Part shown: piece after piece, positions 2,115 through 46,190 of the stretch | Numbering within the stretch: position 1 is the stretch's first letter | Layout: every line of letters begins with the position of its first letter | Origin: Candidatus Zixiibacteriota bacterium | GTDB lineage: Bacteria; Zixibacteria; MSB-5A5; UBA10806; 4484-95 | Assembly (NCBI GenBank): GCA_029932605.1 | Contig: JAOZPT010000013.1 | Coordinates: 1-50,264, forward strand | Direction of reading: 5' to 3' | DNA: 50,264 bases | Made by a program: the position numbers and the translations under genes | Notes under the pieces: model-generated | The model's input: only the letters and a program-made list of their open reading frames with translations | Told to the model about the DNA's origin: nothing | Database searches by the model: none

Positions 2115-3182
2115 ATGACATCAAACAGACTTTATGAATCTAAACAGGAAATGGGCAGGTTTAACTTATCGTTTTCCGAGGTTGTTCGTATAGTGTTATC
2201 TCGATGGAAATTCGTTTCCCTTTTTGCTCTGGGAACCGCTATCTGCACAGCGATTATTGTTCTTCTTATACCCAACAAATATACAGCCACATCTACAATC
2301 CTTCCGACTTCAACTGACCTAACAAAGAAAGGAGCGTTTTCTTTAAATGAGATGATGCCTGATTTGGGATCAATGGGCATGAGCTTCTGGGAAAAGTCAC
2401 CCTCGATTTTATACCCTGAGATCTTAAAGAGCCGCTTTCTGGGAGAGGATGTTTTAAGAAAGAATTATTCAATTACGAAAAAAGGTAAAACAATCACTTT
2501 CGATCTTTACGAATATTTCAAGACGGACAACCCTGACTTAGCATACAAATCTCTACACAAAATTACAGCTATTGATTATAACAAGAAAACTGGCATTGTC
2601 AGTGTATCTGTAACCACAAGGGATGCTCAGCTTTCAGCCCAGATAGCTAATTACTACATCCAGTGTTTGGATGAATTCAACAAACATAAACGCAAAACAG
2701 GCGCTGGATTAAACCGTGAGTTTATTGAGAAACGAATGGCTGACACCGAGAAACAACTTGAACAAGCCGAGGAAAACCTTAAGTCGTTCCGTGAGAAAAA
2801 CCTTAATTATTTCCGTTCAACCGACCCTGAGTTACTGATGGAGCATGATCGTTTATTTCGCGAAGTTGAGGTGAAGACCAAAGTTTATCTTACTTTATCT
2901 CAACAATACGAACTTGCCGCAATCCAGGAGAAAAAAGAATTGCCTGTTATACAGGTGTTAGATGTCGCTAAGCCTCCAACTTTAAAAAGCGGACCGGCAA
3001 GAGCCAAGACCACTATACTGGGGTTGCTAATGGGAATCTTGATATCGTCGATCATGGTGATTGCACAACAACAACAATTCATTAAAAGCAATGATATCGA
3101 TATAAAAAGGCTCATAAGGAAATTGCGCTTTGTTCGACTTCCCCAGACAATAAAAAAAACCGAAAGCATAAAGAAAGGTTAA
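2115..3182 (+). CDS. Polysaccharide chain-length determinant (Wzz/GNVR family, no kinase domain)
   Basis: N-terminal TM, PNKYTATSTILP, a coiled-coil region, VIQVLDVAKPP-KSGP and a C-terminal TM. Confidence 0.85.
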   Translation: MTSNRLYESKQEMGRFNLSFSEVVRIVLSRWKFVSLFALGTAICTAIIVLLIPNKYTATSTILPTSTDLTKKGAFSLNEMMPDLGSMGMSFWEKSPSILYPEILKSRFLGEDVLRKNYSITKKGKTITFDLYEYFKTDNPDLAYKSLHKITAIDYNKKTGIVSVSVTTRDAQLSAQIANYYIQCLDEFNKHKRKTGAGLNREFIEKRMADTEKQLEQAEENLKSFREKNLNYFRSTDPELLMEHDRLFREVEVKTKVYLTLSQQYELAAIQEKKELPVIQVLDVAKPPTLKSGPARAKTTILGLLMGILISSIMVIAQQQQFIKSNDIDIKRLIRKLRFVRLPQTIKKTESIKKG

Positions 3183-3289
3183 GGGATCTTCGATGTTTAA
3201 ATATCATAAAAAACCAGATAATTCTTTCCAAACCATTAACTCGAAATATCGAGTCTTGAAATAATCAATAATAAATAAGGGGGTATATT

Positions 3290-4636
3290 TTGCCTATCCT
3301 GTTTCCAGATGATTTTAAGCGGTTTATTCCTCCTATTAAAAACCCGTATCGACTGCGGATAGCGGATTCGCACGAATTTGTCGAGCTTTATCGCGGTGAC
3401 AAAGACCTCCGCGTGGGCAAGGTACTTTGCCAGAAATACAACTGCGAATTTGTTCAGCTCGGCACTGATATTGCCAGTCCGGCCGATTCAAGGGTTTTCA
3501 AAACAAAAAGTTTCCCATTTGACCAGATAGGACAGCTACCTGAAAACTACTATCTCCTGCTTATGAAAACACGTCTTATAGTTCATCGAAAGGGCAATAT
3601 CAGTCTGGGCGGTTTTTTCAGATGGACACCGGGGATAGCCCGTCAGTTGTTTCGCTGGAAACCTGACTTGATATTGGAAAACCCTTATCTCACCCTCACT
3701 CCGCGTTCATACATGACATTTTTTGCCTCTAAGTTGATGAAGATCCCTTTGGTTTACCTTGATTGCGGTGATATTATGCCTCAGCTTACATTAAAGCATA
3801 AAATAGTACTTCCATTCGAGAAAAGGGTTATCGGGAATGCGGCTGCGGTTATCACATATAACATTGAAGGTAAGAAGAGATTTACAAACAAGTATGGTTA
3901 TCCCTCCAACAAGATATATGTGATACCCAAACCCATCGATACTTTAAGATTTAATCCTGATGTAGACTGTCAGGATTTTAAGAAGAAATATAGTCTTGGG
4001 GGTAAGTTTGTGGTGGGTTATTTCGGGCGGCTTTGCACCAACAAGGGAGCAAGATATCTTCTGGATGCTGCCGATATCATGCGTAGTCGTCAAACTGACG
4101 ATAATACGACATTCCTGTTCGTGGGTGGGAATCTTGAAGCCGATCAGTCAGCAGAATTTAGAAATCATCTGCATAAGCTTAAACTTGATAACGTAAAATT
4201 GACCGGCATGGTGCCCAATAAAGACATACCCGAGGCTTATGCAGCGGTTGATATAGCGGTTTATCCCGATGTTACCAATTTACCGGGGTTTTCCACAGTT
4301 CTTGCCGAAAGCATGGCTTCAGGCAAGCCAATTATAATCGGCATAAAAGGTTGGGAGGATGCCATACCCATTATAGACGGCGAAACTGGTTTAATAATTG
4401 AAGCTAGAAATCCGAAACAGATAGCTGACAGGATTGAACTTTTAAAAGCCGACCATAACTTAAGAAAGAAACTATCAGGTAATGTCCTAAAATTTGCCAA
4501 ACAAGAGATGGATTATGATAAGGTGGTGGCCAAGTATTATAACATCTTCTGTAAATTGACCGGTAAAAAACTAATGGATTTTGAGAACAAGAATGTTGAC
4601 AGCCCAAAGTATAAACTTGAGAAAACCGCTGTTTGA
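3290..4636 (+). CDS. Glycosyltransferase family 4
   Basis: GYFGRL..NKG and the variant GT4 motif PGFSTVLAESMASGKPII. TTG start follows GGGGG. Confidence 0.85.
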   Translation: MPILFPDDFKRFIPPIKNPYRLRIADSHEFVELYRGDKDLRVGKVLCQKYNCEFVQLGTDIASPADSRVFKTKSFPFDQIGQLPENYYLLLMKTRLIVHRKGNISLGGFFRWTPGIARQLFRWKPDLILENPYLTLTPRSYMTFFASKLMKIPLVYLDCGDIMPQLTLKHKIVLPFEKRVIGNAAAVITYNIEGKKRFTNKYGYPSNKIYVIPKPIDTLRFNPDVDCQDFKKKYSLGGKFVVGYFGRLCTNKGARYLLDAADIMRSRQTDDNTTFLFVGGNLEADQSAEFRNHLHKLKLDNVKLTGMVPNKDIPEAYAAVDIAVYPDVTNLPGFSTVLAESMASGKPIIIGIKGWEDAIPIIDGETGLIIEARNPKQIADRIELLKADHNLRKKLSGNVLKFAKQEMDYDKVVAKYYNIFCKLTGKKLMDFENKNVDSPKYKLEKTAV

Positions 4637-6110
4637 GCGGTTGTATTTTTTAATCCCGGCGATAATCTTAACAGCCCTTGTTGCCACTTTTGCGCTTGAG
4701 CTAACAGGGTTTCTTCTGGCTGGAATTTTATTCGCGTATTTCTGGAAACATAAAGACAGGTTGGTACTGTTTTTAATCATTTACACCCCCTTTGAGGAAG
4801 TAGTTCTAAAGATCTTACCGGACTCACTATATGGGCCCGCCAGGTACTTTTGGGAGGGGATGCTATTTGCGATGCTGGGGTTGATGATTCTTGATAAGTG
4901 CATTCTCTCTCGCCAATGGAAAAAAAGCGTTATCGACGTATTGGTTTTGGTTTTTATAATAGCTTGGTTTCTATCAGGTTTTATTAATAACATTCCTATT
5001 TTCTTTTCTTTAGCCAGCATTAAAAACCTTATCAGATATATAGCGATTTTTTATATTGTTTATAATCTCAAGCCGGACAAAAAATTCCTCTCAAAAGCAA
5101 TATTTTCGATTATCACAATTGCTGTGATACAGTCTGTTATCTGCATAGGCCAAGCCATTGAAGGTGATAAGTTGGTAGAAGTTTTTAGGCCAAAGGATGT
5201 GGTTGTTGGAAATTTGCAATTGACATATCAAGATATCCAACGAGAAACATATTACAGCCGGTTCACAGGGACACTTTCACGGAGCAATCATCTTGGCAAT
5301 TACCTTACTTTTGCTCTCTGTTTCTTAATTGCTGTATATTTCAAAATAGGAAAAAATTCTAAGTATTTAATTGCTATAGCGCTTATCATAATAGCCTTAT
5401 TCTTTAGCTCCTCAAGGATATCATGGATCAGTGCCTTTATAGGGATTGGAGCGATACATTTTATTATCAGGCATCGATTCAGATTGTTTTATTTAATTTT
5501 ACCTTTGTTATTTATACTTATGATGGCAAGAGGTAATCCATTTGTTAAAACTGATAATCTATCTGAACATTTTAGTATACTCAATAGGTTTTATCATATT
5601 TTCACAGTAGAATATATAGATCTGGTTAAATATACTGGAAGAGGTTATGCTTTGCTTTATGCAATGCCTAAGGTGCTCACAACAAGCCCGATCTTTGGCC
5701 TTGGACCAGGAAGTTTTATACCTATGACTGGACATATAATGGAGTCTGAAGTATTTGACAAAGCAGATGATTTGGAACTGGAAAGGAAGTCTCTCACATA
5801 TGTCCACGATGTTGGTTACGCTGCATTATTTATCCAAGTTGGATTGATTGGGGCATTCGTTTTTATCTTGATGTTTATACACTTTTTCAAGATGGCTAAG
5901 AGAACATTGAAATTTATAAAAGATCCTATTGTTCAAACATTGTCTCTCGGCTCATTAGGATTTTTTGTGGCGGTTGGTATCCAAAATTTGGCCACATTCA
6001 ATTTTATGTATCGCAACGAATCATTAATAATTTGGACAGTTTGTGGGTTTATAGCACTATTTTCAAAAACTTATAGAAAGAAAATAAGTGGTTCTATATC
6101 AGAAAAATAA
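4581..6110 (+). CDS. O-antigen ligase / Wzy polymerase family membrane protein
   Basis: About 12 TM segments with RFTGTLSRSNHLG, SSSRISW, PIFGLGPG and VHD..YAALFIQVG motifs. The start position is uncertain. Confidence 0.85.
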   Translation: MRTRMLTAQSINLRKPLFERLYFLIPAIILTALVATFALELTGFLLAGILFAYFWKHKDRLVLFLIIYTPFEEVVLKILPDSLYGPARYFWEGMLFAMLGLMILDKCILSRQWKKSVIDVLVLVFIIAWFLSGFINNIPIFFSLASIKNLIRYIAIFYIVYNLKPDKKFLSKAIFSIITIAVIQSVICIGQAIEGDKLVEVFRPKDVVVGNLQLTYQDIQRETYYSRFTGTLSRSNHLGNYLTFALCFLIAVYFKIGKNSKYLIAIALIIIALFFSSSRISWISAFIGIGAIHFIIRHRFRLFYLILPLLFILMMARGNPFVKTDNLSEHFSILNRFYHIFTVEYIDLVKYTGRGYALLYAMPKVLTTSPIFGLGPGSFIPMTGHIMESEVFDKADDLELERKSLTYVHDVGYAALFIQVGLIGAFVFILMFIHFFKMAKRTLKFIKDPIVQTLSLGSLGFFVAVGIQNLATFNFMYRNESLIIWTVCGFIALFSKTYRKKISGSISEK

Positions 6111-6171
6111 TATTGATAAGGCTTATAATTAGTGTATGCTTTAAAGTAATACATTATTTTAAGTTAGCGAG

Positions 6172-7512
6172 GTGAGAAAATTTAAGGAAATAGGTTTTAC
6201 TAGCCGCCTGACAGTATTGGTAACTATTGCTGTTGTAGGGATTTTAACACGGATTCCATTTCTCGATAAGGGATTTGGTGAAGATTTTGATGGTTGGCGA
6301 GTGGTCTATGTTGGACAGCATATTGCATCTGGAATTTTTTATGAGGCTTCCCGTTTGCCTGGTTATCCTGTTGTAGAATATATTCATGCTCTCATCGAAT
6401 GGTTAGGCGCTTCAGGGCCAATAGTACATAACTGCTTAGCTCTCATTTCGGGATTGTTTCTTGGTTTCCTTTTCTATTATGAGACTAAAAATCTTATTGC
6501 TTCCGCAGGATTGCTATTACACCCGCTTATCTGGATTCATAGTACCACAAGTATGGATTATCTGATTGGTGCAACATTGATATTCGGCACTTGGGTATCA
6601 GCCCGATCTCATCCAGTGTTAAGTGGATTGTTAGGTGGAATTGCCACTGGAACCCGTATGACATTGACATTAACTTTTATATCGCTGACACGAAAGTTGG
6701 CGACGGCATTAATATGGATATGCGTTGCCGTTATATCCTTCTTGCCCGTTTTTTTAACTTATGGGTTCCAGATGTTTTCTTATGCACAATCAGATATAAA
6801 ACTAGGCATAGCAATATATAAATGCGTCTATGAGGTTTTTGGTATGCCACTTTTCCTTGGAATCTTAGCGCTTTTCATTTTTTATTGGAAAAGGATTCGT
6901 TATGTTTTTAATGATTCATACTCCCGTCGTATACTGATAACTATTGGCCTTTTAATTATTCCCTACTTAGCTTTACCTGTAGAAACAGCTTATATTATAC
7001 CGATATTGCCATTTGCCTACTTACTTGCAGTACGATGGTTTCCTAAGCGCTGGCTTTTCATTGGCGTAATTCTAGCTGTACTCAATGGATTAATATCATT
7101 CGGAGTCATTGACCCCCAGGCTTACAGAGAATACGGACGAGTTGCAATTCATGCTGTTTCGCCTGGAAGGGTAATCCGCGATTACCAAGTACGCGTTGAG
7201 CAAAAAAGTCGTGCAAAATTGCTTGCCAAAGCCAACTACCCAAAGAATTCTTATGTTTTCATCGATGTTTTTCCATCTGCTATTGTGGAAGCAGCCCCTC
7301 ATCGGTGGCAATTAACAGATTTCTTTGAGGCATATGATCCTTTACAAAATGTAACTTTAACAGGCGAGCTTTCCCCAAAAGATATTAAGGAGGCGATAGC
7401 AAACAACATATCCATTTATTATTTGGCCAATAGAGGGTTACGCTATCAGTATGAAAGGATATACGGTCATGACCCCGATGAACTTAATGCTAAGCCATTA
7501 ATTATTAAATAA
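6172..7512 (+). CDS. Polytopic membrane protein, possible GT-C-fold glycosyltransferase
   Basis: TM1 is followed by an acidic loop (GEDFDGW...PGYPV), then many TMs and a soluble C-terminal domain. It sits inside the glycan cluster. Confidence 0.55.
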   Translation: MRKFKEIGFTSRLTVLVTIAVVGILTRIPFLDKGFGEDFDGWRVVYVGQHIASGIFYEASRLPGYPVVEYIHALIEWLGASGPIVHNCLALISGLFLGFLFYYETKNLIASAGLLLHPLIWIHSTTSMDYLIGATLIFGTWVSARSHPVLSGLLGGIATGTRMTLTLTFISLTRKLATALIWICVAVISFLPVFLTYGFQMFSYAQSDIKLGIAIYKCVYEVFGMPLFLGILALFIFYWKRIRYVFNDSYSRRILITIGLLIIPYLALPVETAYIIPILPFAYLLAVRWFPKRWLFIGVILAVLNGLISFGVIDPQAYREYGRVAIHAVSPGRVIRDYQVRVEQKSRAKLLAKANYPKNSYVFIDVFPSAIVEAAPHRWQLTDFFEAYDPLQNVTLTGELSPKDIKEAIANNISIYYLANRGLRYQYERIYGHDPDELNAKPLIIK

Positions 7513-7559
7513 GACCAAGACGTTTTTAGTTAGTAGATTTTCAGAAGGAATGTGGATGA

Positions 7560-8834
7560 ATGAAGATACTTATCGCTAATAAATATCTCTACCCTCGCGG
7601 TGGCGATTGCCTTTATACGTTAAGATTGATGAAACTGTTGACAGATGCCGGTCACACGGTGATACCGTTTTCGATGCACCATCCACAGAACATTAAGACC
7701 GATTATGACAGATATTTCGTACCGTATATCGATTTCCGCGAGGAGCTGAAGCGATTTGATATTAAAAGTGCTATTAAAGTTGTCTCGAGGTCAATTTATA
7801 ACGCTAAAGCCGTAGAGTTGATGCAACAAGTTATCGAAGACCACCACCCTGACATCATTCACCTCAATAACATTCATCACCAGCTTACTCCAGCTATTCT
7901 CAAATGGCCTGCAAAATACAATATACCTGTAGTCTGGACTCTTCACGATTATATCTTAAGCTGCCCTGATAACACTTTTCTGAGAAATGGAAAAATTTGT
8001 GATAAATGCGCCCATGGGAACAATCTTTATGCCATAGTCCACCGCTGTAAAAAAGGTTCGCTCGGTGCCAGCCTTATCGCCGTTGTCGAATGCTCTTTTT
8101 ACTATCCAAAAAGACTGGCAAAAACTGTTTATAAGTTTATATCGCCAAGTCGATTCCTGGCTGACACGTTAACCAAAAACAGCCTGCCCGATGAGAAGGT
8201 GGCGAACATACCCAATTTTATTCCACCTCTACAGCTACCTTCAACCGGTGATGACTATTTTCTTTATTTCGGAAGGTTGTCCGGTGAAAAAGGAGTTGAT
8301 ACTCTTCTCGAGGCCTTTGCCAAGCTTGGCAAAGGGAAGTTGATAATTGCTGGAGACGGTCCGGACCGCCAGAAGCTCGAAAACAAGTCCATAGAACTCA
8401 ATTTAACCAATGCCTCGTTCGTTGGCTATCAAACGCCAGAATCAATTTTTAACCTTTTATCAGGATGTCTGGCGTCAATAGTACCATCGATCTGGTGGGA
8501 GAATTTCCCGTATTCTGTAATGGAGGCCATGGCTGCTGGTAAACCGGTTATCGCCTCGACAACCGGTGGCATACCGGAGCAGATTGAACATGAAAAAAAC
8601 GGTTTGTTGTTTGAGCCGGGTAATGCAGAACAACTGGCTCAGTGTATGGCAAGACTTTATCATGACAGAAAACTGGCCAAAGAATTAGGTCAGGCAGGCC
8701 ATGATAAAACTATAACGGAATATAGCCCTGAAACACACTATCAGAGAATAATGAAGATTTATAGTGAGGCGGTCGATAAAATGAAAGATAGCAGTTCCGA
8801 ACGAAGAGTTCAGGGGCATATACACACAGCTTAA
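7560..8834 (+). CDS. Glycosyltransferase family 4
   Basis: MKILIANKY..RGG, YFGRLSGEKG and ENFPYSVMEAMAAGKPVI. Confidence 0.92.
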   Translation: MKILIANKYLYPRGGDCLYTLRLMKLLTDAGHTVIPFSMHHPQNIKTDYDRYFVPYIDFREELKRFDIKSAIKVVSRSIYNAKAVELMQQVIEDHHPDIIHLNNIHHQLTPAILKWPAKYNIPVVWTLHDYILSCPDNTFLRNGKICDKCAHGNNLYAIVHRCKKGSLGASLIAVVECSFYYPKRLAKTVYKFISPSRFLADTLTKNSLPDEKVANIPNFIPPLQLPSTGDDYFLYFGRLSGEKGVDTLLEAFAKLGKGKLIIAGDGPDRQKLENKSIELNLTNASFVGYQTPESIFNLLSGCLASIVPSIWWENFPYSVMEAMAAGKPVIASTTGGIPEQIEHEKNGLLFEPGNAEQLAQCMARLYHDRKLAKELGQAGHDKTITEYSPETHYQRIMKIYSEAVDKMKDSSSERRVQGHIHTA

Positions 8835-8861
8835 AGAATATTTTAAAATTTGAGGGGGATT

Positions 8862-9944
8862 ATGAATGCATGTGTGATTGCAACTTATAGATGTAATGCA
8901 CATTGTCATATGTGTGATATCTGGCGCAATCCAACCAAAAAAAGTGAGGAGATAACGCCGGATGTTGTCGCTAAAATGCCGGGTAATCTTGGAAGGATAA
9001 ATCTTACCGGTGGTGAGCCCATGCTACGTGACGATATAGAGGAGCTTGTCCGGATTCTGTATAAAAAATGCCGCATAGTCGAAATCAGCACCAACGGTTT
9101 CTATACTGACAGGCTGGTGAGGATAGCCGAGAAATACCCCAAGGTTATGATTCGAATCAGTCTTGAGGGATTACCTGCGTTAAATGACAGGCTCAGGGGT
9201 ATCACAAACGGATTCGATCATGCATTGCGCTCCATTCTGGAGCTTAAAAAGACCAAGGTTAAGGATATCGGTTTTTCCATTGTCATATGCGATAAAAATG
9301 TCAAGGATCTCGTTAGCCTGTATAATCTTGCAGTTGGTTTGAATGTTGAATTGGCTCAATCGACCATGCACAATTCCTGGTATTTCCACAAAACAGATAA
9401 CAAGGTTGATGATAAGCAGATTGTTCTTTGCGAAATGGAGAGATTCATGACGGAACTTTTAACCTCAAAGCGAAGCTCACTCAGGCTGAAAATTAAAGAT
9501 TGGTTGAGGGCATTTTTCAATCTTAGAATTTATCATTATATAAAATACGGCTACAGCCATCAGAGAACTTGTACAGCCGGTACCGATTTGTTTTTCCTTG
9601 ACCCATTCGGCGACATTCTTCCCTGCAACGGCACTGATGATAAATGGGTGATGGGTAATCTTAATGAAAAAACCTTTAAAGAGATATGGACCAGTCCCCA
9701 GGCGGAAAAAGTCAGGGAGATGGTCAAATCGTGCCGTAGAGACTGTGCCTTCATCGGTACAGCTCGTTTTGATATGTTAAGAAACCCAGCGCGACCAATT
9801 AAGTGGATATTGAAAAATAAGATACGCTTTATGCAGGGCAAATCTATAAGCGTTGATTTAGGTGAAGGGGATACTATCGTTGATAATATAGATACCATTC
9901 CTGTATTGGAACGCGAGAAAAGCAAAAAGCTCGTAATAAAGTAA
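8862..9944 (+). CDS. Radical SAM / SPASM-twitch domain protein
   Basis: CNAHCHMC (CxxxCxxC) and TGGEP, plus C-terminal CTAG...GDILPC...MGN...CRRDC. ATG 8862 follows GAGGGGG. Confidence 0.9.
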   Translation: MNACVIATYRCNAHCHMCDIWRNPTKKSEEITPDVVAKMPGNLGRINLTGGEPMLRDDIEELVRILYKKCRIVEISTNGFYTDRLVRIAEKYPKVMIRISLEGLPALNDRLRGITNGFDHALRSILELKKTKVKDIGFSIVICDKNVKDLVSLYNLAVGLNVELAQSTMHNSWYFHKTDNKVDDKQIVLCEMERFMTELLTSKRSSLRLKIKDWLRAFFNLRIYHYIKYGYSHQRTCTAGTDLFFLDPFGDILPCNGTDDKWVMGNLNEKTFKEIWTSPQAEKVREMVKSCRRDCAFIGTARFDMLRNPARPIKWILKNKIRFMQGKSISVDLGEGDTIVDNIDTIPVLEREKSKKLVIK

Positions 9945-10004
9945 GCTGCTTTTTAAAGCATTTTTGAACTAATTTGCTCTTATAACATTTTTCCGGGAGA
10001 GTGT

Positions 10005-11252
10005 GTGCCCACAGTCGATTTAGAATCCAAAACGGCTAAAAAACCACCAGTCTCAAGGACAGACACAAGTTTCTCTCCTTTAAGACAATTAAGGATCGCC
10101 ATGATTGGGCAAAAGGGTTTACCGGCAACGTATGGTGGGGTTGAACATCATGTGGAAAATCTGAGCGTTGGATTGACCTCTCTGGGTCATAAAGTCACGG
10201 TCTTTTGCCGACGCTACTATTGCTCCGAAATTGATAAACATTTAAACGTCGAAACAACAGGCCCTTTGACATATTCCTATAAAGGACTGGACCTTAGGAT
10301 TGTAAAATCACTTAAGACAAAACATCTTGATGCAATTACCCATGCGACCCTGTCAACGTTGATCGCTTTAAGAGATGATTTCGACATAATTCACTTTCAC
10401 GGTATCGGCCCATCGTTTGTCAGTTTCGTTCCGCGATTATTTGCCAAGAAAGTTGTAGCCACAGTTCACGCTTTCGATTTTCGCCAAAAAAAATGGGGTA
10501 GATTTGCCAAATTCTGTTTGAGAATGGGATTGAAAAGCGCTGTAACTTTTCCACAGAAAACTATATGCGTCTCTAAAACGATACTGGGAAGTCTCGGTGG
10601 TTGTAAGAATACGGTATATATACCCAACGGCGTCAAAGAGCCTTATGTTTGGAGCAGCAATGAACTTGACTGGATACGGTCGAGGGGATTGGAACCCGGC
10701 AAATATATCCTATTTGTAGGAAGACTCATAGAGGACAAGTGTTGCCACCTTTTAAGCCGGGTGGTAAAAGAGATCGACGACGGATTAAAACTTGCCGTGG
10801 CAGGTGAATCCAGTTTCACCGATGGTTATGTTGAAAGGCTCAAACGATCGGCTGGCCCGAATACGATATTCCTCGGCAATGTCTATAACGAAAAGCTTTC
10901 TGCCCTTTATGCAAATTGCGCCCTTTTTGTGCTGCCCTCATCAGTTGAAGGGCTCCCCATTGTTTTAATTGAGGCAATGAAACATGGGGCTCCGGCATTG
11001 GTCTCCGATATCCCTGAAAATATGGAGATACTCAACAGCGCCGGCGCTTACAAACCAGTAGGCATTTCATTTAAGAACAAAGACTTCGAGTCGTTAAAGA
11101 GGGCCATTACCGAAAATCTGGCTCGCCCCGAGTTTCTACATCTGATTGCAAAAAATGCAATTAATTATGTTAACGAAAACTACAACTGGCAAACAATAGT
11201 TAAAGATACTCAAAGCGCTTATTTTGATGCTTTAGGTGTTATGGATGTATGA
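10005..11252 (+). CDS. Glycosyltransferase family 4
   Basis: IAMIGQKGLPATYGGVE, FVGRLIEDK and EGLPIVLIEAM. Confidence 0.92.
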   Translation: MPTVDLESKTAKKPPVSRTDTSFSPLRQLRIAMIGQKGLPATYGGVEHHVENLSVGLTSLGHKVTVFCRRYYCSEIDKHLNVETTGPLTYSYKGLDLRIVKSLKTKHLDAITHATLSTLIALRDDFDIIHFHGIGPSFVSFVPRLFAKKVVATVHAFDFRQKKWGRFAKFCLRMGLKSAVTFPQKTICVSKTILGSLGGCKNTVYIPNGVKEPYVWSSNELDWIRSRGLEPGKYILFVGRLIEDKCCHLLSRVVKEIDDGLKLAVAGESSFTDGYVERLKRSAGPNTIFLGNVYNEKLSALYANCALFVLPSSVEGLPIVLIEAMKHGAPALVSDIPENMEILNSAGAYKPVGISFKNKDFESLKRAITENLARPEFLHLIAKNAINYVNENYNWQTIVKDTQSAYFDALGVMDV

Positions 11253-37346: not shown

Positions 37347-38813
37347 ATGATGAGTAAGAAAATAGCGATACTGGTACTTTTGACAATACTTATTTATTCT
37401 GCGGGGCCATATCAACAAAAATTATGTTATGCTGGTATCGATAACCTTATTGGTGCCAGAGGGGAGGGCATAGGTTTTTCCCATATAGTCTTTGCTGATG
37501 AACCATATGGAGCGCTTTATAACCCCGCTGGACCCGCTTTTGTGAGAGACTGGCAGGTTCAGTTCCAATATTATCATCCTACAAAATACGGGTTAGCTGG
37601 TATTGATGAATCTCCCTATGATGGTTTAGTAGGCTTCAATTATTACAAGGAAAATTTTGGCAATATCGTTTTAAATACACATCAGTTTGGCTCAACCTCC
37701 AACCCAACGACAGTTACAACCACAAACAACATAAACCTCTCTTATGCCAGAATGCTCAACAATGACATTGCCGGTGGCATAGGTTTCAAATATATCTTTG
37801 AAACCAATCAAAGTGAGCGCTCATCTTTTGATTTGGATGTCGGGTTTAGCTATAGGCCACAGGTTAATTTCGCCTTGGCCGCAGCGGCTGAAAATCTCTT
37901 AAGAAGCAAACTCACACCTGACTTGCCGAGCACAACCGAGCATTTACCAAGAAAAATTCGCTTTGCTGGCGCTTACCTTATACCGATGACAGATAACCTT
38001 GGCTCAATTCTCGCCGGCTGGCAGTTAGAACAGGCCGGCGAAGCATCAACAATCAATACCTCGCTTTTCAACTTTGGTACCGAGTGGTGGATCGCCACCA
38101 ACTATACAATATCATTCGGCATTCGGGGAGGTTACACATTCGGCAAAACAACCATAGCCGATAATAAAACCGATTTCAACCGCTGGCATGCTGGTATGTC
38201 TCTTAATTTCAATCTCAAGGGCCGTGATTTGCGTTTCGACTATGGGTTCAGAAGTTACCCCTTTGAGTCATCGGAGACCCTGCCATCGGATAACTTCCTT
38301 TCGGTAACTTACGGATGGGGTGGTGTACCGGACTACGGTAGAAAAACAGATAAAATATACGACCTTACAAAATTCACCAAACGCCAGCCTCCTCAAGAAA
38401 AGAAACCTGAACAAACTATCGTTGATAAAACCCGGTATCCAGAAAAACAGAAACCCGTGCCAAAACCTCCCGCTTTCTTGAAACTCGATGTTGAAATGAA
38501 CGTCACCGACATCAGCATCTCCGGTAATAGAAGAATTGTATTTTATACAAGACCACAAAAATTGATAAGAATAACCTCCTGGAAACTTTACATATTCACC
38601 GCCAAAATAAAGCGATGGACTGATAAGATTGCCGATGAATACGCTATGCATATGATAGAAGGCAAGGGTATCCCGCCAATTAACAAAGTCTGGAATGGTG
38701 TGCTCAAGGATGGAACCACATTGCCACCCGGGAAATATTATTTTGTAATCATTGGCGAAGATAAATACGGTCAGAGATATATGTCCGATTGGTGCAAATT
38801 TGTTTTAAAATAA
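37347..38813 (+). CDS. PorV/PorQ-like outer-membrane beta-barrel with C-terminal FlgD-Ig-like domain
   Basis: Signal peptide, GARGEGIG..ADEPYGALYNPAG, alternating beta-strands, a Pro/Lys-rich linker and VWNG..KDGTTLPPGKYYFVI. Confidence 0.65.
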   Translation: MMSKKIAILVLLTILIYSAGPYQQKLCYAGIDNLIGARGEGIGFSHIVFADEPYGALYNPAGPAFVRDWQVQFQYYHPTKYGLAGIDESPYDGLVGFNYYKENFGNIVLNTHQFGSTSNPTTVTTTNNINLSYARMLNNDIAGGIGFKYIFETNQSERSSFDLDVGFSYRPQVNFALAAAAENLLRSKLTPDLPSTTEHLPRKIRFAGAYLIPMTDNLGSILAGWQLEQAGEASTINTSLFNFGTEWWIATNYTISFGIRGGYTFGKTTIADNKTDFNRWHAGMSLNFNLKGRDLRFDYGFRSYPFESSETLPSDNFLSVTYGWGGVPDYGRKTDKIYDLTKFTKRQPPQEKKPEQTIVDKTRYPEKQKPVPKPPAFLKLDVEMNVTDISISGNRRIVFYTRPQKLIRITSWKLYIFTAKIKRWTDKIADEYAMHMIEGKGIPPINKVWNGVLKDGTTLPPGKYYFVIIGEDKYGQRYMSDWCKFVLK

Positions 38814-38898
38814 TCCTTTATCTTTGTTAAAGGAGGGGGATAACGGTGCTTGCAAAAAGGCGCCGTTTTTAAATTAATACCGATAGGAGTTAACAACA

Positions 38899-39423
38899 AT
38901 GATCAAGAAAATCCTGATTTTTTCAATATCTATAATAGTGATAGTTGGTGCATATAGTTGCTCTCAACAATCACAACAGCCTGTGCTACTAAAAAACTTT
39001 CCCTTAGACGACCTCGAGGGAATCATAAGCCAATCAGGCATAGTGTTCGATAGGGAAATCTCAAGTGATGGCAATGGTTCATTGCAAATTGTCGTAACCG
39101 AGTCCACTTTGGTTCGATTATTTGAAATCGGTGACATCGATGTTGAAAACGCACGTTTATTTTACCAGGCGAAGATTCGCACAGAAAACGTAGAAGGCCG
39201 GGCATATTTGGAGATGTTGTGTCATTTCCCTGGCCGGGGAGAATTCTTCTCGCGGGGCTTTCAATCAGCCCTCTCCGGCTCCAATGATTGGTCAACTTCA
39301 GAGACTTTTTTCTTTTTAAAAAAGGGTGAAAATCCTGACAACGTGAAACTTAACCTTGTTATAAGCGGCAAAGGAACCGCCTGGATAGATGACATAAAGT
39401 TATTGAAAGGACCGCTTAAGTAA
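38899..39423 (+). CDS. Putative lipoprotein with beta-sandwich (CBM-like) domain
   Basis: RBS AGGAG, signal peptide ending GAYS-C, and DGNGSLQI, GSNDW and GTAWIDDIKL motifs. Confidence 0.6.
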   Translation: MIKKILIFSISIIVIVGAYSCSQQSQQPVLLKNFPLDDLEGIISQSGIVFDREISSDGNGSLQIVVTESTLVRLFEIGDIDVENARLFYQAKIRTENVEGRAYLEMLCHFPGRGEFFSRGFQSALSGSNDWSTSETFFFLKKGENPDNVKLNLVISGKGTAWIDDIKLLKGPLK

Positions 39424-39469: not shown

Positions 39470-40990
39470 TCAATTATCATTAAACCTTAAAACTATACCC
39501 GGCGAAGAAAGTATTATTTCAAATTCAATACTCCAGTCCGTTTCATCGACTCCGGGAATATTTCCCTTATTTTTTATATCAGCAACACCGCAGGCTATCC
39601 TGGCTTGCAGAAAACTGTCTCTGTGGAATAAAAGTTCAAATTGGCCCCCAAGCCTTTTCTCGACGACACCCGAGGGAAATTTCTCAGAGTATGTACTGTC
39701 ATCGATCCAGGGCGTTTCCCAGTCGTTATTTATTCGTCCCTCTCCTCTATTTAGAACATAAAATATAAACCCACCGGTCAAACCCCTTTTAATATGATAC
39801 GTATATGATAGATTGACCGATTCATTATCAGGGCCAAGAGGGTGTCCTAACGGATAGTTTTGATTAACATAGCGGTTTCTGGGTTTCATCTGATTATAGG
39901 TTCTGTTGTTGATACGGGTATATTCAAGCTCCATAAAGCCCATTCTAACCGGAAAATCAAATATATCAACCCCGGCAATAAAACCTATTTCATTGGGTTC
40001 ATAATCGGAGGCGGTTTTTTTCTCAATCTGATAATCGTCTATCAGCAACTCAAGGTAACCCGCATATCGATTTTTAAGTCGAATAACCGTCTCGATACCG
40101 AAGAAGGTGTTGTCATCGATATTGGCGTTTAACTGTTCGGCGTGGAACCATAGAAGCGGCATTGCATAAGATGGCTCAAATCGTCGTCCAAACCCGCCAT
40201 ACACGACCGATTCCTTTAAAACAAAGTCCAGCCATTTGACTGGTGAAATCATTAAAGCATGCGCTGAAAAATACCTGTTCTCCGTATGTCCGCTTTCAAG
40301 GAAAAGCGAATCTACTTTGATTGGTGATAAACAGGCGATAGTCGAATGAAATGAGAGGGTCTTACGTATCCTGTAGTCGATAAACAATCCATCGAGAGGC
40401 ATAGCCGTTGCTGACAACATCAGGGTTTTTCCTTTTCGGGCAACGCCCCATGCGCACCGTCGACGGCCGAAACCAATCGATAATCTCTTCGTCCTGTAAC
40501 TTATCATCGCCAGTTCACCATAACCGGCAAATTCACTCCATCGCTTGCCGGTATAAAGTGAATCATCATTAAGTCCACTGTCAATCCTGTAGGCGATATC
40601 GATAAACAGATTTGGCGAGATTTTATAATTTGCTCCGGGGTAAAAGGCGAAATAGCTTTTTGAAACATCGCCATTAAACAAGCCATAAGGAACAACCGAT
40701 AAATTGAGCTTGAGGCCTTCCAATTCATTGTGAAAACGGCGGTCTAGATAAGCCAACGGCTTGGTCAGCTTATCAAACATAGGCGGTATACCTTCCAGGG
40801 AAAGCCCTGATATATATCTATAATCGACCGGTATAAACAACGCAGCCTGCGCATCTACATAACCCCTGAGATACAGCTCCCTCAAATAATCATATGATAT
40901 TCTTGTATCAGGTCTACCTACAGGCAACATACTTCCAAAAGCTAAATTGGAGCATAAAACGACAATAAAAAATCTTAATGTAATTCTCAT
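39470..40990 (-). CDS. Capsule assembly Wzi-family outer-membrane protein
   Basis: Signal peptide, GRRRCAWG...LMLS, ESVVYGG, ELLIDD, EYTRI and PLGHPLGPD. It lies in the EPS export operon. Confidence 0.75.
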   Translation of the reverse strand: MRITLRFFIVVLCSNLAFGSMLPVGRPDTRISYDYLRELYLRGYVDAQAALFIPVDYRYISGLSLEGIPPMFDKLTKPLAYLDRRFHNELEGLKLNLSVVPYGLFNGDVSKSYFAFYPGANYKISPNLFIDIAYRIDSGLNDDSLYTGKRWSEFAGYGELAMISYRTKRLSIGFGRRRCAWGVARKGKTLMLSATAMPLDGLFIDYRIRKTLSFHSTIACLSPIKVDSLFLESGHTENRYFSAHALMISPVKWLDFVLKESVVYGGFGRRFEPSYAMPLLWFHAEQLNANIDDNTFFGIETVIRLKNRYAGYLELLIDDYQIEKKTASDYEPNEIGFIAGVDIFDFPVRMGFMELEYTRINNRTYNQMKPRNRYVNQNYPLGHPLGPDNESVNLSYTYHIKRGLTGGFIFYVLNRGEGRINNDWETPWIDDSTYSEKFPSGVVEKRLGGQFELLFHRDSFLQARIACGVADIKNKGNIPGVDETDWSIEFEIILSSPGIVLRFNDN

Positions 40991-40996
40991 TTAATT

Positions 40997-42169
40997 CTAT
41001 GATAAAGTTGGTTCAAGGGTACTTCTTTTTTCCTGACTTTTGTTGGTAAGATTTATCGTTACCCGGCGCCCGTCAAAATCAGCTATTAGACTGTTTATCT
41101 TCCTCTCATCAAGAGTATTACCGTCAAGGAATAGCTCTTTTGGGTTATGTGCATTATAGCGATTCCTTTCAGACTTGCCGCCTTTGTAAGATGGAATTCT
41201 TTCCGGCTCGTACAAGCTTTCATTATCGCTGATGATATTTACTACGTTATTGTTTCCAAATCTCTTTTTCATCTGTTTGAAAAGCTCGTCAGCCTTTTTT
41301 CCCGAACCAACTATGATAATACTTTTTTGACCTTCCTGCCGCTTTGCGAAAAAGCCAGCCAATCGAGGAACCAGAATAAATCTGTTGAACCTTAATCCGA
41401 CCAAACCAACTACGTAACCGAACATCAACGCTAAACGAAAGTCGGCAAAATATATTTTCTTTAAAAAGAAAAGTATCGCTACAAATACTACATAAGCCCA
41501 GGTCAATCCCCCCATATCTATACCGAACCTTTTCTTTCCGGCAAAAAAGCGGTTGTTTTTATAATTTCTCGAAAGAACAAAACCATAACAACATGCAAAT
41601 GAAGCAAGAAGATAAATGAGCTCTTTTGCTCCCCAAAGCAAGGGTATCTTACTCGATTGGAAGATTTCTCCTTGAAGCGTAAAACCAAAAAATAACGCCA
41701 GAATAGCCATGAAAATATTGGTTGCAACACTTAGAATATTCTCTACCCTGTCATGTTTATTTTTATAAGGCTCATATTTATATGCGTAACCGGCATCAAT
41801 CATTCGCTTTCGCTCGGTAGAAGCCGATTTTGTAATTTTCAGGATATCATCTATATCAAAAGGCTTCATGAGATAGTCATAAACACCCAATTTTATAGAG
41901 TCAACAGCTGCATTAAAATCATTTCGACCGCTCATAACGATTGCCACGGTCAGGGGCGATTTCCTTTTCAGTGTTTTTAAAATATAAAAGCCATCGATAC
42001 TGGGTAAGACCAGGTCTATAAAGGCGATATCAAAGTCTTTTTTATATATCAGATTCAAAGCTTTGGAGCCGTCACCAACAACGGTAACCTGATGTCCATC
42101 CCTGGACAAGATCTCGTTTAACAGTGTGGTTATATGTTTGTTGTTGTCGACAACAAGTACTTCAGCCAT
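40997..42169 (-). CDS. Response regulator: receiver domain + 4 TM + Rossmann-like module resembling the non-catalytic part of a priming PGT
   Basis: Receiver motifs VLVVDN, FIDLVLP.IDG, MSG and YLMKPF. These are followed by four hydrophobic helices and SIIIVGSGKKA. Confidence 0.8.
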   Translation of the reverse strand: MAEVLVVDNNKHITTLLNEILSRDGHQVTVVGDGSKALNLIYKKDFDIAFIDLVLPSIDGFYILKTLKRKSPLTVAIVMSGRNDFNAAVDSIKLGVYDYLMKPFDIDDILKITKSASTERKRMIDAGYAYKYEPYKNKHDRVENILSVATNIFMAILALFFGFTLQGEIFQSSKIPLLWGAKELIYLLASFACCYGFVLSRNYKNNRFFAGKKRFGIDMGGLTWAYVVFVAILFFLKKIYFADFRLALMFGYVVGLVGLRFNRFILVPRLAGFFAKRQEGQKSIIIVGSGKKADELFKQMKKRFGNNNVVNIISDNESLYEPERIPSYKGGKSERNRYNAHNPKELFLDGNTLDERKINSLIADFDGRRVTINLTNKSQEKRSTLEPTLS

Positions 42170-42175
42170 TTTCTT

Positions 42176-43600
42176 CTACCTGGCGCCCTTACCGGAAAGC
42201 ACTGCCGGAATTGTCCTGGCAAGGATTTTAGTATCCAGCCAAAGTGACCAGTTATCGATATACTCCAGGTCCATTTTCATCCACTGCTCGAAGCTGATAT
42301 CATTTCTTCCGCCAACCTGCCAGAGGCATGTAAGGCCCGGTTTCACAGATAGTTTTCGTCTTTGCCAGAGGTCGTATTTTTTTACTTCATTAGCCAGCGG
42401 TGGTCGTGGCCCCACCAAAGACATATCTCCTCTCAAAACATTAAAAAGCTGTGGCAACTCATCAATAGAGGTTTTTCTCAACCACCTGCCAAAAGTGGTT
42501 ATTCTTGGGTCATTCTTTATCTTAAAAGCTGGGCCATCCATCTCATTTCGCTTGAGCAAATTTGCTTTGAGTTTTTCAGCATCAACAACCATCGTCCTAA
42601 ATTTATAAAGCGAAAATTTCTTACCATTAAGTCCACAGCGTTCCTGTTTAAATAAAATCGGCCCTTTTGATGATAATTTGATAGCTAACGCAACAAAAAA
42701 CATCAGAGGTGATAATAAAATTATGCCAATAGCGGCTACGACACGATCAATAACACATTTAAAGATGAAAGCAATATTTGCTCGGGGGGCAGTATCAAAA
42801 AGCAACATTGGATATTCCAAGAACTGATCAACTCTCTCCTTTGCATATTTTGCAGGGAAGAAATCAGCCAGCACTGCCACCCGTGTGCCCATCTCCTGAC
42901 AGATTGCAACAGATTTTTCAACTTTCCTGAGATGGCCATTTTCAACAGCGTAAACCACCCAATCAACCTGTTGGGACTTGATTATGTCCGGCAAATCCTC
43001 AAGGCATCCTATATAAGGAATATCACGATAGCTTGAGAGGTGATATTTGGAAGTACCCTTTGGGGATCCTTTCCAATCAATAAAACCAGTGATGTTAAAT
43101 CCCCAGTGGACATTTTCGATGACCTTATCAGCAAATTCCTTAGCCTTTTTACCCCTACCAACGATTATCACGGTTTGACTGTTGTATCCACGTTTCCTGT
43201 AATATCTTAAAAGAGAATTAACAGTAAGGCGGAGAAGATTGAGACTTATCAAACTCAAAATTAAAAAGCTGGCAACTTGAATCCTGCTCTGGTTGGGATA
43301 CCCCATCACAAAAAAGTAAACTAGGAAAAGCCCCGATGCCTTTAAAGAAGCAGAGGTCGATGCTTGCATAATCTCAAAACCGGTTCTCAGACGGAATGTA
43401 TAACAGCCTTTATGGTTCCAGAGAACCAATCCCCAGATGACGATAGCAGCTAACATAAAATCGTCAAATGTGAAATGTGTAATCCCTGTTTTATAATAGA
43501 AGGCTTTAACATATAAAGATATCTGAAAACTCAGCACGACCAAACACAGGTCGGCGGTAAATAAAAGTTTCCTCAGCGTATTGAAGTGTTCCCTAATCAT
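42176..43600 (-). CDS. Undecaprenyl-phosphate sugar phosphotransferase (WcaJ/WbaP-type priming PGT)
   Basis: 4 TM, VIIVGRG, K..ID, FKQER.G, KFRTM, DPRIT, SIDELPQLFNVLRGDMSLVGPRP and KPGLT..WQV. Confidence 0.95.
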   Translation of the reverse strand: MIREHFNTLRKLLFTADLCLVVLSFQISLYVKAFYYKTGITHFTFDDFMLAAIVIWGLVLWNHKGCYTFRLRTGFEIMQASTSASLKASGLFLVYFFVMGYPNQSRIQVASFLILSLISLNLLRLTVNSLLRYYRKRGYNSQTVIIVGRGKKAKEFADKVIENVHWGFNITGFIDWKGSPKGTSKYHLSSYRDIPYIGCLEDLPDIIKSQQVDWVVYAVENGHLRKVEKSVAICQEMGTRVAVLADFFPAKYAKERVDQFLEYPMLLFDTAPRANIAFIFKCVIDRVVAAIGIILLSPLMFFVALAIKLSSKGPILFKQERCGLNGKKFSLYKFRTMVVDAEKLKANLLKRNEMDGPAFKIKNDPRITTFGRWLRKTSIDELPQLFNVLRGDMSLVGPRPPLANEVKKYDLWQRRKLSVKPGLTCLWQVGGRNDISFEQWMKMDLEYIDNWSLWLDTKILARTIPAVLSGKGAR

Positions 43601-43901: not shown

Positions 43902-46190
43902 TTACTTAAGCCTGTCAATAACGAATATGGTTGTTGCAACCGAACCAAGTATAGTTGCGGTCGAGCTAATAATGTCACTCCAATCGGTCTTGCTTTTTAA
44001 TCTCGACGGCACAACAACTGCATCACCAAGCTCAATAACTTTTTTTCGAGCCTTGCGTCCGTAAAATACTTTGCCGTCAGGTTTCACGAGGCGGATCTCC
44101 GATTTATCAGCATCCGGTGTAAAGCCACCGGCCTGCTCGATATAGAACATAGCCTTTTTGTTTTTAACATAGGCAATGGTGCCGTTGGCAGCGACAGCTC
44201 CAATAACCTGAACACCGGACGGATAAGTAGGTATATAGATGTAATCACCACCTGAGAGAACTATATCTTGTGGTCCATCAGGCTCCTTTAAAATTTTATC
44301 AAGGTCGATGATTATTCTATTTAATAATGAAGGATTGAAATCTACTTTATTGCTTGTTATGGGATGGCCAAGAGAATCCATCTGGGTCTCCCGGCTGTTT
44401 TCAATTATCTTACCTATATTTCGACGTGTAACATCCTCCTCAATTGAACTGCGATAGAACATCGCCCCCTTCGAAAACGCTGATGGCGTTAAACCACCGG
44501 CCCTCTTTATAAGATCAGACAATCTCTCATCTTTCTGCTTGATAGCATACTGGCCTGGGAAAATTACCTCACCCTCGATTGTAACTATCTGTACTGGTCG
44601 CCAATCAGGGATCAACCTTATGAAAACATGGTCATCCTCTTTTAAAAATATATCAGCGCCGGGTTTCTTATTTATAAGAACATCTTCAAGATTAACGGAG
44701 ACGATATTGGGAGGGTTACCCGGGTTTGCTCTGGCAATTTCAGCTCTGACCATATACGCCTGTTTGGTCAGGTTACCAGCCAAAAAGATAAGGTCAGTGA
44801 GTTTCATTCCCTGATATAACGGATAAACGTCCGGTTTTTTTATAGCTCCGGTGATGCTTACAGATTTCTTTCGCTTAACCTGGTCATTAGAATAGACCAC
44901 TAAATTGTCGAACGGTTGAAGATAAATATCTGAAGCTTGGTCGCCCTCGAGGATTTTCTCGAGGTTAACAGGTATTATTTCCTTCTCACCATTATCGTAT
45001 GTTCGGTAAAGGTCAGCTCGTTTTTTATAAGTGTTTCCTTTTAATTGTTCGCCACAAGCTATGAGCTGTGAGATACGCATCGAATCGGTAAAGCCAAACG
45101 GTCCCGGGTGCTTAACATGACCTGTCAGTTGAACCATGTTCTCATGAAAATCGTAAATCGATGGAACACTGATTCTGTCACCATCTTGGAGTAATATGTT
45201 ATTTTCGGCAATGCCTGCTGTATCAGCGAGATTGAGGTCTTTTAATATACGGCTATCGTTTGGGCCAACCCTATCCAAACTTATCGATTCCAGAAAGGCG
45301 GTGGGATTGGTTCCACCAGCAATTTCTAATAAATCTGTGACCCTTTCGTCACCTTTAAGCTCATAGATCGCTGGTCTTTTTACCTCACCACTTATACTCA
45401 CCAGAGGTCCTGCTACCGGAACATAAACCACATCGCCCGAAAGAAGCTTTAAATCGCCTTTTGTATCGCCCCTTAAAAGTAGGTCATATAAGTCATAATG
45501 ACTGAAAACCTTGGTGTTGCGGATAAGCCTAACATCACGCAAACTTCCATTGGTTGTTATCCCATCAGCTACGTATAAAGCATGGAGAAGCGTTGCCAAA
45601 GAGGACACACTATAACCCCCGGGCTTGTTAACCTCGCCAAATACAAATATCCTGATTTGCCTTAACTTGCCCAAAGCAACCGAAACATGGTAATCAGAAT
45701 ACACATCGTTAAGTTTATCTTTAAGGCTTTGCTTAAATTGTTCAAGCGTTTTGCCCACAGCTACTAACTCGCCAACTTTGGGAATAAATACCTTACCCTC
45801 CCGATCCACAGTTAGGGTTAATTCAAGGTCAACCCGGCCCCAGACATTAACTATAAGATTGTCTCCCGGCCCAAGTGTATAGTCCGCTGGCGGTAAAGAA
45901 ACCAAATTTGGAGCATATAAAGCCCCGGAACCGGTAAATATATTATGACCAAAAAGTACTAACTCTTGTCCCGCACTAGGTGTTTGCTGGGCTACATTCT
46001 CTGTCGACGATGTTTGTGTCTCCTCTGTGAAATACTCCGGGGATGTAAATCTTTCGGTCTCGTAATCGACTGGGAGTTTTTGTTTCTCCTGATATTTTTT
46101 AATTATACCTTCTTGAGACTGGGTTAGCTGTCCAAAGCTACTCACAACTCCATAGATAAAAAACAGTGTCAAAGCTATTGTTTTTCTCAT
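43902..46190 (-). CDS. Polysaccharide export protein with multiple SLBB domains (Wza/KpsD-like)
   Basis: Poly_export motif YTLGPGD...VDREGKVFIPKVG and repeated V.GEV..PG.Y...AGG SLBB units. Confidence 0.92.
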   Translation of the reverse strand: MRKTIALTLFFIYGVVSSFGQLTQSQEGIIKKYQEKQKLPVDYETERFTSPEYFTEETQTSSTENVAQQTPSAGQELVLFGHNIFTGSGALYAPNLVSLPPADYTLGPGDNLIVNVWGRVDLELTLTVDREGKVFIPKVGELVAVGKTLEQFKQSLKDKLNDVYSDYHVSVALGKLRQIRIFVFGEVNKPGGYSVSSLATLLHALYVADGITTNGSLRDVRLIRNTKVFSHYDLYDLLLRGDTKGDLKLLSGDVVYVPVAGPLVSISGEVKRPAIYELKGDERVTDLLEIAGGTNPTAFLESISLDRVGPNDSRILKDLNLADTAGIAENNILLQDGDRISVPSIYDFHENMVQLTGHVKHPGPFGFTDSMRISQLIACGEQLKGNTYKKRADLYRTYDNGEKEIIPVNLEKILEGDQASDIYLQPFDNLVVYSNDQVKRKKSVSITGAIKKPDVYPLYQGMKLTDLIFLAGNLTKQAYMVRAEIARANPGNPPNIVSVNLEDVLINKKPGADIFLKEDDHVFIRLIPDWRPVQIVTIEGEVIFPGQYAIKQKDERLSDLIKRAGGLTPSAFSKGAMFYRSSIEEDVTRRNIGKIIENSRETQMDSLGHPITSNKVDFNPSLLNRIIIDLDKILKEPDGPQDIVLSGGDYIYIPTYPSGVQVIGAVAANGTIAYVKNKKAMFYIEQAGGFTPDADKSEIRLVKPDGKVFYGRKARKKVIELGDAVVVPSRLKSKTDWSDIISSTATILGSVATTIFVIDRLK

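Follow-up and report, generated by a model that had tools for sequence, protein, structure and literature searches.

In Myxococcus xanthus, the phosphorylated receiver protein EpsW~P is reported to stimulate the large phosphoglycosyltransferase (PGT) EpsZ (PMC12802240). Large PGTs carry a four-helix transmembrane (TM) bundle and a PF13727-like domain (hereafter DUF), and only lately has the DUF been tied to dimerisation and to sensing of uridine monophosphate (UMP). Here we describe a protein, P0001, in which a receiver is joined to a PGT-like four-TM bundle. It is encoded in a 50,264-nucleotide stretch from Candidatus Zixiibacteriota bacterium (GenBank assembly GCA_029932605.1, contig JAOZPT010000013.1, positions 1 to 50,264), referred to below as the window. 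Its gene lies between that of a large monotopic PGT (monoPGT), P0002, and wzi, with gaps of 6 nt after the P0002 stop codon and before wzi; the first of these distances had been given in a first-pass annotation of the window, and the open reading frame (ORF) coordinates agree with it. As judged from sequence comparison, P0001 is a receiver fused to the catalysis-free N-terminal module of a large monoPGT, and the fusion is real.

Architecture and distribution of P0001

P0001 residues 156–379 align to positions 4–225 of TIGR03025 (E 1.5e-14), and the protein fits this large monoPGT family in its N-terminal four-TM bundle, with the same order and predicted topology of segments. TIGR03025 was also matched by 19 of 20 modules homologous to that of P0001. 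Moreover, a profile–profile comparison (hhalign) of the P0001 and PGT families gave 96.5% probability (E 7.9e-10, 164 columns) and paired the very segments quoted in the first-pass annotation, which had proposed that the C-terminal part of P0001 mirrors the N-terminal module of the PGT. The sequence has four hydrophobic segments, and the family mean of Lys plus Arg per loop is 4.7, 1.4, 4.8, 0.6 and 5.1. Because basic and non-basic loops alternate around the four hydrophobic peaks, both the receiver and the C-terminal part are predicted to be cytoplasmic.

P0001 residues 135–390 resemble Atlas CoA_binding_3 clusters of 238–278 residues (0.93–0.95); the full-length ortholog from locus L020 retrieved only receiver clusters there, at 0.82, and a fold search with the full-length P0001 model listed receivers only. 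The best solved match of the P0002 model was WbaP (8t53, E 1.4e-20). A sequence search of solved structures with the module profile found no significant chain. Word-based searches with the same profile, which are weak evidence, returned four family members and none among longer proteins.

The catalytic Bac_transf domain with its DE dyad was found neither in P0001, in keeping with the first-pass annotation, nor in any of the 72 family representatives described below. A Polysacc_synt_2 domain following the four-TM bundle and DUF is likewise absent from P0001, and no protein of this genome had one at E 1e-20. The CoA_binding_3 domain that had been assigned to P0001 could not be confirmed: there is no match at E up to 1, and residues 314–345 are modelled at pLDDT below 50. 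Among the 20 homologous modules, seven match CoA_binding_3 (PF13727) at E up to 0.1, the best at 9.2e-10. The DUF dimerisation hairpin was not detected in P0001, where homology stops at the last DUF strand and the model is of low confidence, and no member of the family extends into it. The orthologs from L020, L021, L023 and L026 keep a full DUF that aligns by eye with the PGT DUF to its last strand; in the other members the domain is eroded. The four-TM bundle is the sole part kept by all 23 orthologs.

A family profile was built from 20 module sequences and run against 24 genomes of the order and 261 other genomes of the phylum. The P0001 module alone, used as a query, had already found relatives in 9 of 9 genomes of its taxonomic family and in 12 of 14 of the order's other family. 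With the profile, one strong copy was seen in 23 of the 24 genomes of the order; the remaining genome has the start of the gene, and its contig ends about 150 nt in. No strong match was found in the 261 other genomes of the phylum, where 17 weak ones (E 3e-7 to 6e-4) were nearly all frames of 462–625 residues; five other weak matches, inspected individually, were PGTs. A profile search of 1.84 billion representatives gave 122 matches, 71 of them at E up to 1e-10. We took 72 representatives as the family, 40 with a receiver and 32 without (about ten of the latter fragment-like). The 51 weaker matches, which share one protein (P0097) with the family set, comprise 24 large PGTs, six fusions with a family 2 glycosyltransferase (GT2), 17 proteins matching only CoA_binding_3 and four matching nothing; none carries a receiver or a dehydratase domain (Polysacc_synt_2). 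The module is also absent from 151 other loci gathered by receiver similarity. P0105, P0114, P0124, P0132 and P0138 each combine a GT2 with this module, and four of them also show a weak partial Bac_transf match. These GT2 fusions may represent a third architecture that uses the module without PGT catalysis.

The gene is tightly linked to the PGT. An orthologous PGT (48–62% identity) occurs in 21 of the 24 genomes of the order, and in all 21 the P0001 ortholog lies 2–15 nt behind it, and wzi comes immediately after it in 16 of the 19 PGT-linked loci that could be scored. Two PGTs from outside the order, 42% identical, have no P0001-like neighbour, as expected of an accessory. The first-pass annotation had named three findings that would overturn its reading (no structural homology to the PGT module, no link to PGT genes, a one-off degenerate fusion), and none of them was seen; conservation of the gene across the order rules out the last.

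Ancestry of the module and state of the receiver

The first-pass annotation had called P0001 a copy of the neighbouring PGT. Its relationship to P0002 turned out to be more distant: pairwise BLASTP aligns the two with only 13 of 29 identities (E 0.001). For the module, hhalign scores were about equal, at 96.1% against the neighbour-PGT clade, 96.5% against another PGT clade and 95.0% against PGTs from other orders. In a tree of 45 rows, unrooted and with long branches, for which 9 of the 19 neighbour PGTs and 6 of the 15 fusion proteins were used, a branch supported at 100/98 separates the module from all other rows, and its grouping with the neighbour-PGT clade was marginally rejected (p-AU 0.04). 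On the even scores and this test, we reject a recent duplicate of the neighbour; by these comparisons, the module is an old paralog of the PGT module. Nor is P0001 a frameshifted PGT, as its frame ends cleanly before wzi, likewise in relatives. A dehydratase origin is unsupported given the lack of Polysacc_synt_2 among the weaker profile matches, of which the 17 with CoA_binding_3 only are not assignable.

Erosion of the DUF and repeated loss of the receiver might suggest that the gene is a functionless, decaying relic of a PGT duplication. However, the frame is open and present as a single strong copy across two families, and the ratio ω lies at 0.12–0.29 for the TM part in all unsaturated pairs. 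Even in the three genomes where the orthologous PGT was not found, pN is below pS at p of at most 1.1e-8. This selection signal largely refutes the relic, which we consider highly improbable.

The receiver is the best-conserved part of the protein (mean identity 38.7%, compared with 27.0% for the TM part and 17.7% for the DUF), with ω of 0.08–0.22 in five unsaturated pairs. Its model superimposes on the NtrC1 receiver 1zy2 with Z 23.0 and a root-mean-square deviation of 1.2 over 125 aligned residues. The 17 ortholog receivers cluster together, to the exclusion of 41 further receivers from this genome (SH-aLRT 95), a pattern that fits a single old fusion. The domain had been described as intact. 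This is correct as regards the Response_reg match and the presence of Asp52 (in FIDLVLP), Ser80 (MSG) and Lys102 (KPF), to which Tyr99 and Pro103 can be added, but the acidic pair is Asp8–Asn9, with Asn in place of the Mg2+-binding Asp, so that the canonical five-residue set is incomplete. Among the 42 receivers of this genome 37 are canonical, and Asn at the second acidic position is seen only in P0001.

Asn9 is common to all 10 genomes of the taxonomic family of P0001. The order's other family has seven receiver-bearing members, of which four are canonical, two lack the phospho-Asp and one is otherwise altered. Thus, all five canonical residues are present in 4 of 17 receiver-bearing orthologs and the phospho-Asp in 15, while 6 of 23 orthologs have no receiver at all; these counts speak against a conventional phospho-switch as the conserved core of the system, which the first-pass annotation had envisaged. 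Of the 40 receiver-bearing representatives, 10 are canonical, 18 have the Asn and keep Asp, Ser/Thr and Lys, nine are otherwise altered, one lacks the Asp and two are incomplete. The phospho-Asp is kept in 39 of the 40. PMC12632262 defines pseudo-receivers, names Asn at the second acidic position (DD2) as a common change and states that such changes need not abolish phosphorylation. Under the strict form of that definition, and as read from its sequence, the P0001 receiver is a pseudo-receiver. Since Asp, Thr/Ser, Lys and the aromatic residue at position K-3 are kept, weak phosphorylation may still occur.

Possible role beside the PGT

Gene linkage and homology suggest that P0001 pairs with the PGT. 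We tentatively propose, at somewhat less than an even chance, that P0001 is a membrane-tethered accessory subunit of the neighbouring PGT, probably a braking one, acting on it much as EpsW acts on EpsZ. Its four-TM bundle would pack against P0002 in the inner membrane, leaving the receiver and the DUF remnant in the cytoplasm, where the receiver would contact the DUF or the catalytic face of the PGT by analogy with what is proposed for EpsW on EpsZ. Pairing would cap or dilute active PGT dimers and so brake the first step of surface-glycan synthesis. A brake is suggested by the make-up of the two proteins: hairpin and active site are both present in the PGT and both missing from its partner; P0001 could at most accept a hairpin and could neither donate one nor catalyse. 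The PGT, which keeps its own dimer hairpin, should for that reason need no activator. Asp phosphorylation would be the input for the ancestor and for those members whose site is canonical; in the family of this genome the receiver may be a slow or weak phospho-acceptor, or a docking surface independent of phosphorylation. Receiver-less members would have no input and act as a fixed damper. A complex prediction for P0002 and P0001 scored 0.23 against a mark of 0.32, its controls were unfolded, and it was not counted either way.

The genomes without the PGT bear on this proposal in two ways. Searches of G011, G013 and G021 turned up neither the orthologous PGT nor Wzi, and G011 and G021 showed no large PGT of any kind; completeness is 95% for G013 and 90% for G021 (both single contigs) and 95% for G011 (280 contigs). 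No PGT or wzi remnant was seen in the gaps of these three loci. All three genomes keep a receiver-less form of 223–234 residues with the DUF cut short, and we count this joint absence of PGT and receiver in favour of an accessory. A single long-branched clade holds the three proteins, and the PGT was therefore most simply lost once, before the selection. That selection weighs against the accessory role: TM ω among these three is 0.14, 0.27 and 0.23 (pairwise Nei–Gojobori; the pairs are not independent) despite the missing PGT (the adjacent glycosyltransferase has 0.20–0.25, and the 488-residue protein X488, 0.07–0.08), so the bundle appears to act without the orthologous PGT. Several other observations count on the same side. 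According to the structural description in PMC10942596, the TM contact in WbaP covers just 176 Å2 and nearly the whole dimer contact is made by the DUF hairpin, and the DUF is the most decayed part of the P0001 family, with 35–116 residues after its EG motif. At least two losses of the receiver are seen in loci that still have the adjacent PGT (L028/L029; L030), and canonical receivers make up only a quarter of the receiver-bearing representatives. Finally, no dedicated kinase is linked to the gene; among the loci read, one hybrid kinase lies near one locus (L017).

The order encodes further proteins of interest in this respect. One is a 770-residue fusion (L124:5733-8045, G000:C70) of a Glycos_transf_4 domain, which we take to be MraY-like, with a four-TM bundle and DUF and a dead monoPGT domain. 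All 24 genomes of the order have it, and the DE dyad is lacking in 15 of 15 aligned sequences; to judge by its sequence, it is a second case in which the module occurs without catalytic capacity. Another is a small monoPGT of 290 residues without the four-TM bundle and DUF (G000:C33), with a similar PGT of about 300 residues in 24 of 24 genomes. In L125:6425-11926 the gene of the 290-residue monoPGT stands beside those for a P-loop protein, a Wzz/GNVR protein and a Wza, making up a second locus for export.

These proteins are candidate partners, together with the lipid carrier, if the four-TM bundle is instead a general membrane scaffold of glycan pathways that works mainly with something other than, or in addition to, the neighbouring PGT and has the receiver as an add-on input; with the small PGT, P0001 would make up a split PGT in trans. 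Purifying selection on the TM core without a cognate PGT and its survival as the only universally kept part would be explained, and both the MraY-like fusion and the small PGT are at hand in every genome, being the sole Bac_transf matches in G011 and G021. However, neither is linked to P0001 orthologs in the loci read, whereas coupling to the large PGT is tight, and the module is least similar to that of the MraY-like fusion (hhalign 10.7%). Moreover, the PGT-less trio, as a single long-branch clade, may reflect one later change of role. We regard such a scaffold as unlikely, if still a substantial possibility.

The two remaining explanations turn on the receiver, and we consider both improbable. 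Signal flow could be reversed, with the membrane module sensing the state of the pathway (UMP through the DUF, or the load of the lipid carrier) and the receiver passing the signal to a two-component system or draining phosphate from it. The stabilisation of the WbaP DUF by UMP, UDP and UTP, as given in PMC10942596, and the high conservation of the receiver are compatible with this idea, and a slowed active site would suit a phosphate sink or a docking surface; but the DUF is decayed in most members, receiver-less forms are common and still under selection, and no kinase is conserved beside the gene. Alternatively, P0001 could be a canonical heterodimer partner that pairs through the DUF, as WbaP does, and is switched on by phosphorylation of Asp52. 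EpsW, as described in PMC12802240, sets a precedent for activation, and three of the four orthologs with canonical receivers (L020, L021 and L023) also have a full-length DUF. In this genome, on the other hand, the receiver has Asn9 for the metal-binding Asp, the middle of the DUF is disordered, P0001 shows no hairpin, and the PGT, unlike EpsZ, has a predicted hairpin of its own.

Returning to the accessory subunit, we may speculate, with little confidence, on a broader scheme. The four-TM bundle, with or without the DUF, might be a portable membrane pairing module that wires together the active large PGT, the receiver-bearing empty subunit and the MraY-like fusion. The receiver-bearing subunit would then be a signal-controlled decoy that chooses the active initiating enzyme and thereby routes limited lipid carrier between glycan pathways.

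Gene surroundings and comparison with known systems

The gene order on the minus strand is Wza/SLBB, P0002, P0001 and Wzi; coordinates are collected in the table.

Table. Features of the P0001 locus (window coordinates).
Feature	Position	Strand	Basis
P0001, REC-4TM-(DUF remnant) protein, 390 aa, without catalytic domain	40997..42169	-	Domain and profile matches
P0001 receiver domain, residues 4-112	41834..42160	-	Pfam Response_reg, E 7.6e-24
P0001 Asn9, second acidic (DD2, metal-binding) position	42143..42145	-	Receiver alignment; DD2 as defined in PMC12632262
P0001 Asp52, phospho-acceptor position, retained	42014..42016	-	Ortholog comparison
P0001 four-TM bundle, residues about 144-270	41360..41740	-	Homology to large-PGT TM bundle
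P0001 DUF (PF13727-like) remnant, residues 279-374	41048..41335	-	First strand (with GSG) and last strand, with disorder between them; stops short of hairpin
P0002, large monotopic PGT (4TM-DUF-Bac_transf), catalytic D380-E381 intact, likely partner	42176..43600	-	Domain matches
P0002 predicted DUF beta-hairpin, residues 257-268	42797..42832	-	Model strands E257-260 and E263-268; pLDDT about 50-65
Wzi-like outer-membrane capsule assembly protein	39470..40990	-	PF14052, E 2.2e-15
Wza/SLBB polysaccharide export protein	43902..46190	-	Poly_export and SLBB
X488, unnamed 488-aa protein	37347..38813	+	Only a weak TraF_2 match, E 0.0036

In relatives, X488 is encoded on the same strand, 3' of the P0001 ortholog or of wzi; in the window it is on the opposite strand, where it and an ORF for a 174-residue lipoprotein-like protein (37347-39423, plus strand) converge on wzi. 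A metagenome contig (L146), 98–99% identical, shares this layout, which is therefore not an assembly error. At 2115-11252 of the window, some 30 kb away from the PGT, lies a cluster with genes for a radical SAM protein, Wzz, glycosyltransferases and a Wzy_C-like protein; in L020 and L023 its first genes have homologs beside the PGT, on the opposite strand. A class I/II aminotransferase gene stands between Wza and the PGT in L016 (8196-9383) and L017 (9407-10636), and ORFs of similar size do so in L019, L025 and L034; the window has none at that position. In G020 (L023:8119-10533) two ORFs take the place of wzi and X488 is shorter, reflecting frameshifts or assembly errors. Promoter-like sites were not above chance (20 versus 22.8 expected).

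We found no literature description of a receiver-4TM-DUF protein; the fusion lists and supplements of O'Toole 2021 could mention one, although this would be unlikely in a survey based on the catalytic domain. The architecture is real, order-wide and apparently undescribed. Its family amounts to a natural dissection of the module, being free of catalysis and occurring with and without a receiver, with full or eroded DUF, and with or without a PGT. Because the TM bundle always survives, it would seem to have a function that involves neither catalysis nor the dimer contact of the DUF. If P0001 does bind the PGT, it would represent a pseudo-enzyme route of post-translational control over glycan initiation, in addition to EpsW and the phosphorylation of CapM. 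The reach of this is one uncultured order, for which we infer the interaction.

The closest described counterpart is EpsW. Both are receivers without a DNA-binding output whose genes share a polysaccharide locus with that of a large PGT. EpsW acts post-translationally on the initiating large monoPGT EpsZ (PMC12802240), and the action of P0001 on P0002 is proposed here by analogy. The same source presents EpsW as a soluble, single-domain protein with a canonical receiver and a known kinase, DifE, whereas P0001 is TM-fused and atypical and has no linked kinase; EpsZ, as that source describes it, lacks the DUF hairpin, whereas P0002 has one predicted with moderate confidence. With WbaP/WcaJ (TIGR03025; PDB 8T53), as characterised in PMC10942596, P0001 shares the four-TM bundle and a stretch resembling the start of the DUF, but it has an N-terminal receiver and neither catalytic domain nor hairpin, and in its family the DUF is often eroded. 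The small monoPGTs fused to receivers (O'Toole 2021, as cited in PMC12802240) also join a receiver to part of a PGT; the citing text has them keep the catalytic domain, whereas P0001 keeps the non-catalytic module instead. PglF/CapD-type dehydratases, according to PMC10942596, have an N-terminal four-TM bundle and DUF likewise without the PGT catalytic domain, but carry a dehydratase domain that P0001 does not. The names WbaP, WcaJ, PglF and CapD follow the cited papers and the family matches. Finally, P0001 shares the DD2-to-Asn change with pseudo-receivers as they are outlined in PMC12632262, and yet it retains Asp, Thr/Ser, Lys and the aromatic residue at K-3.

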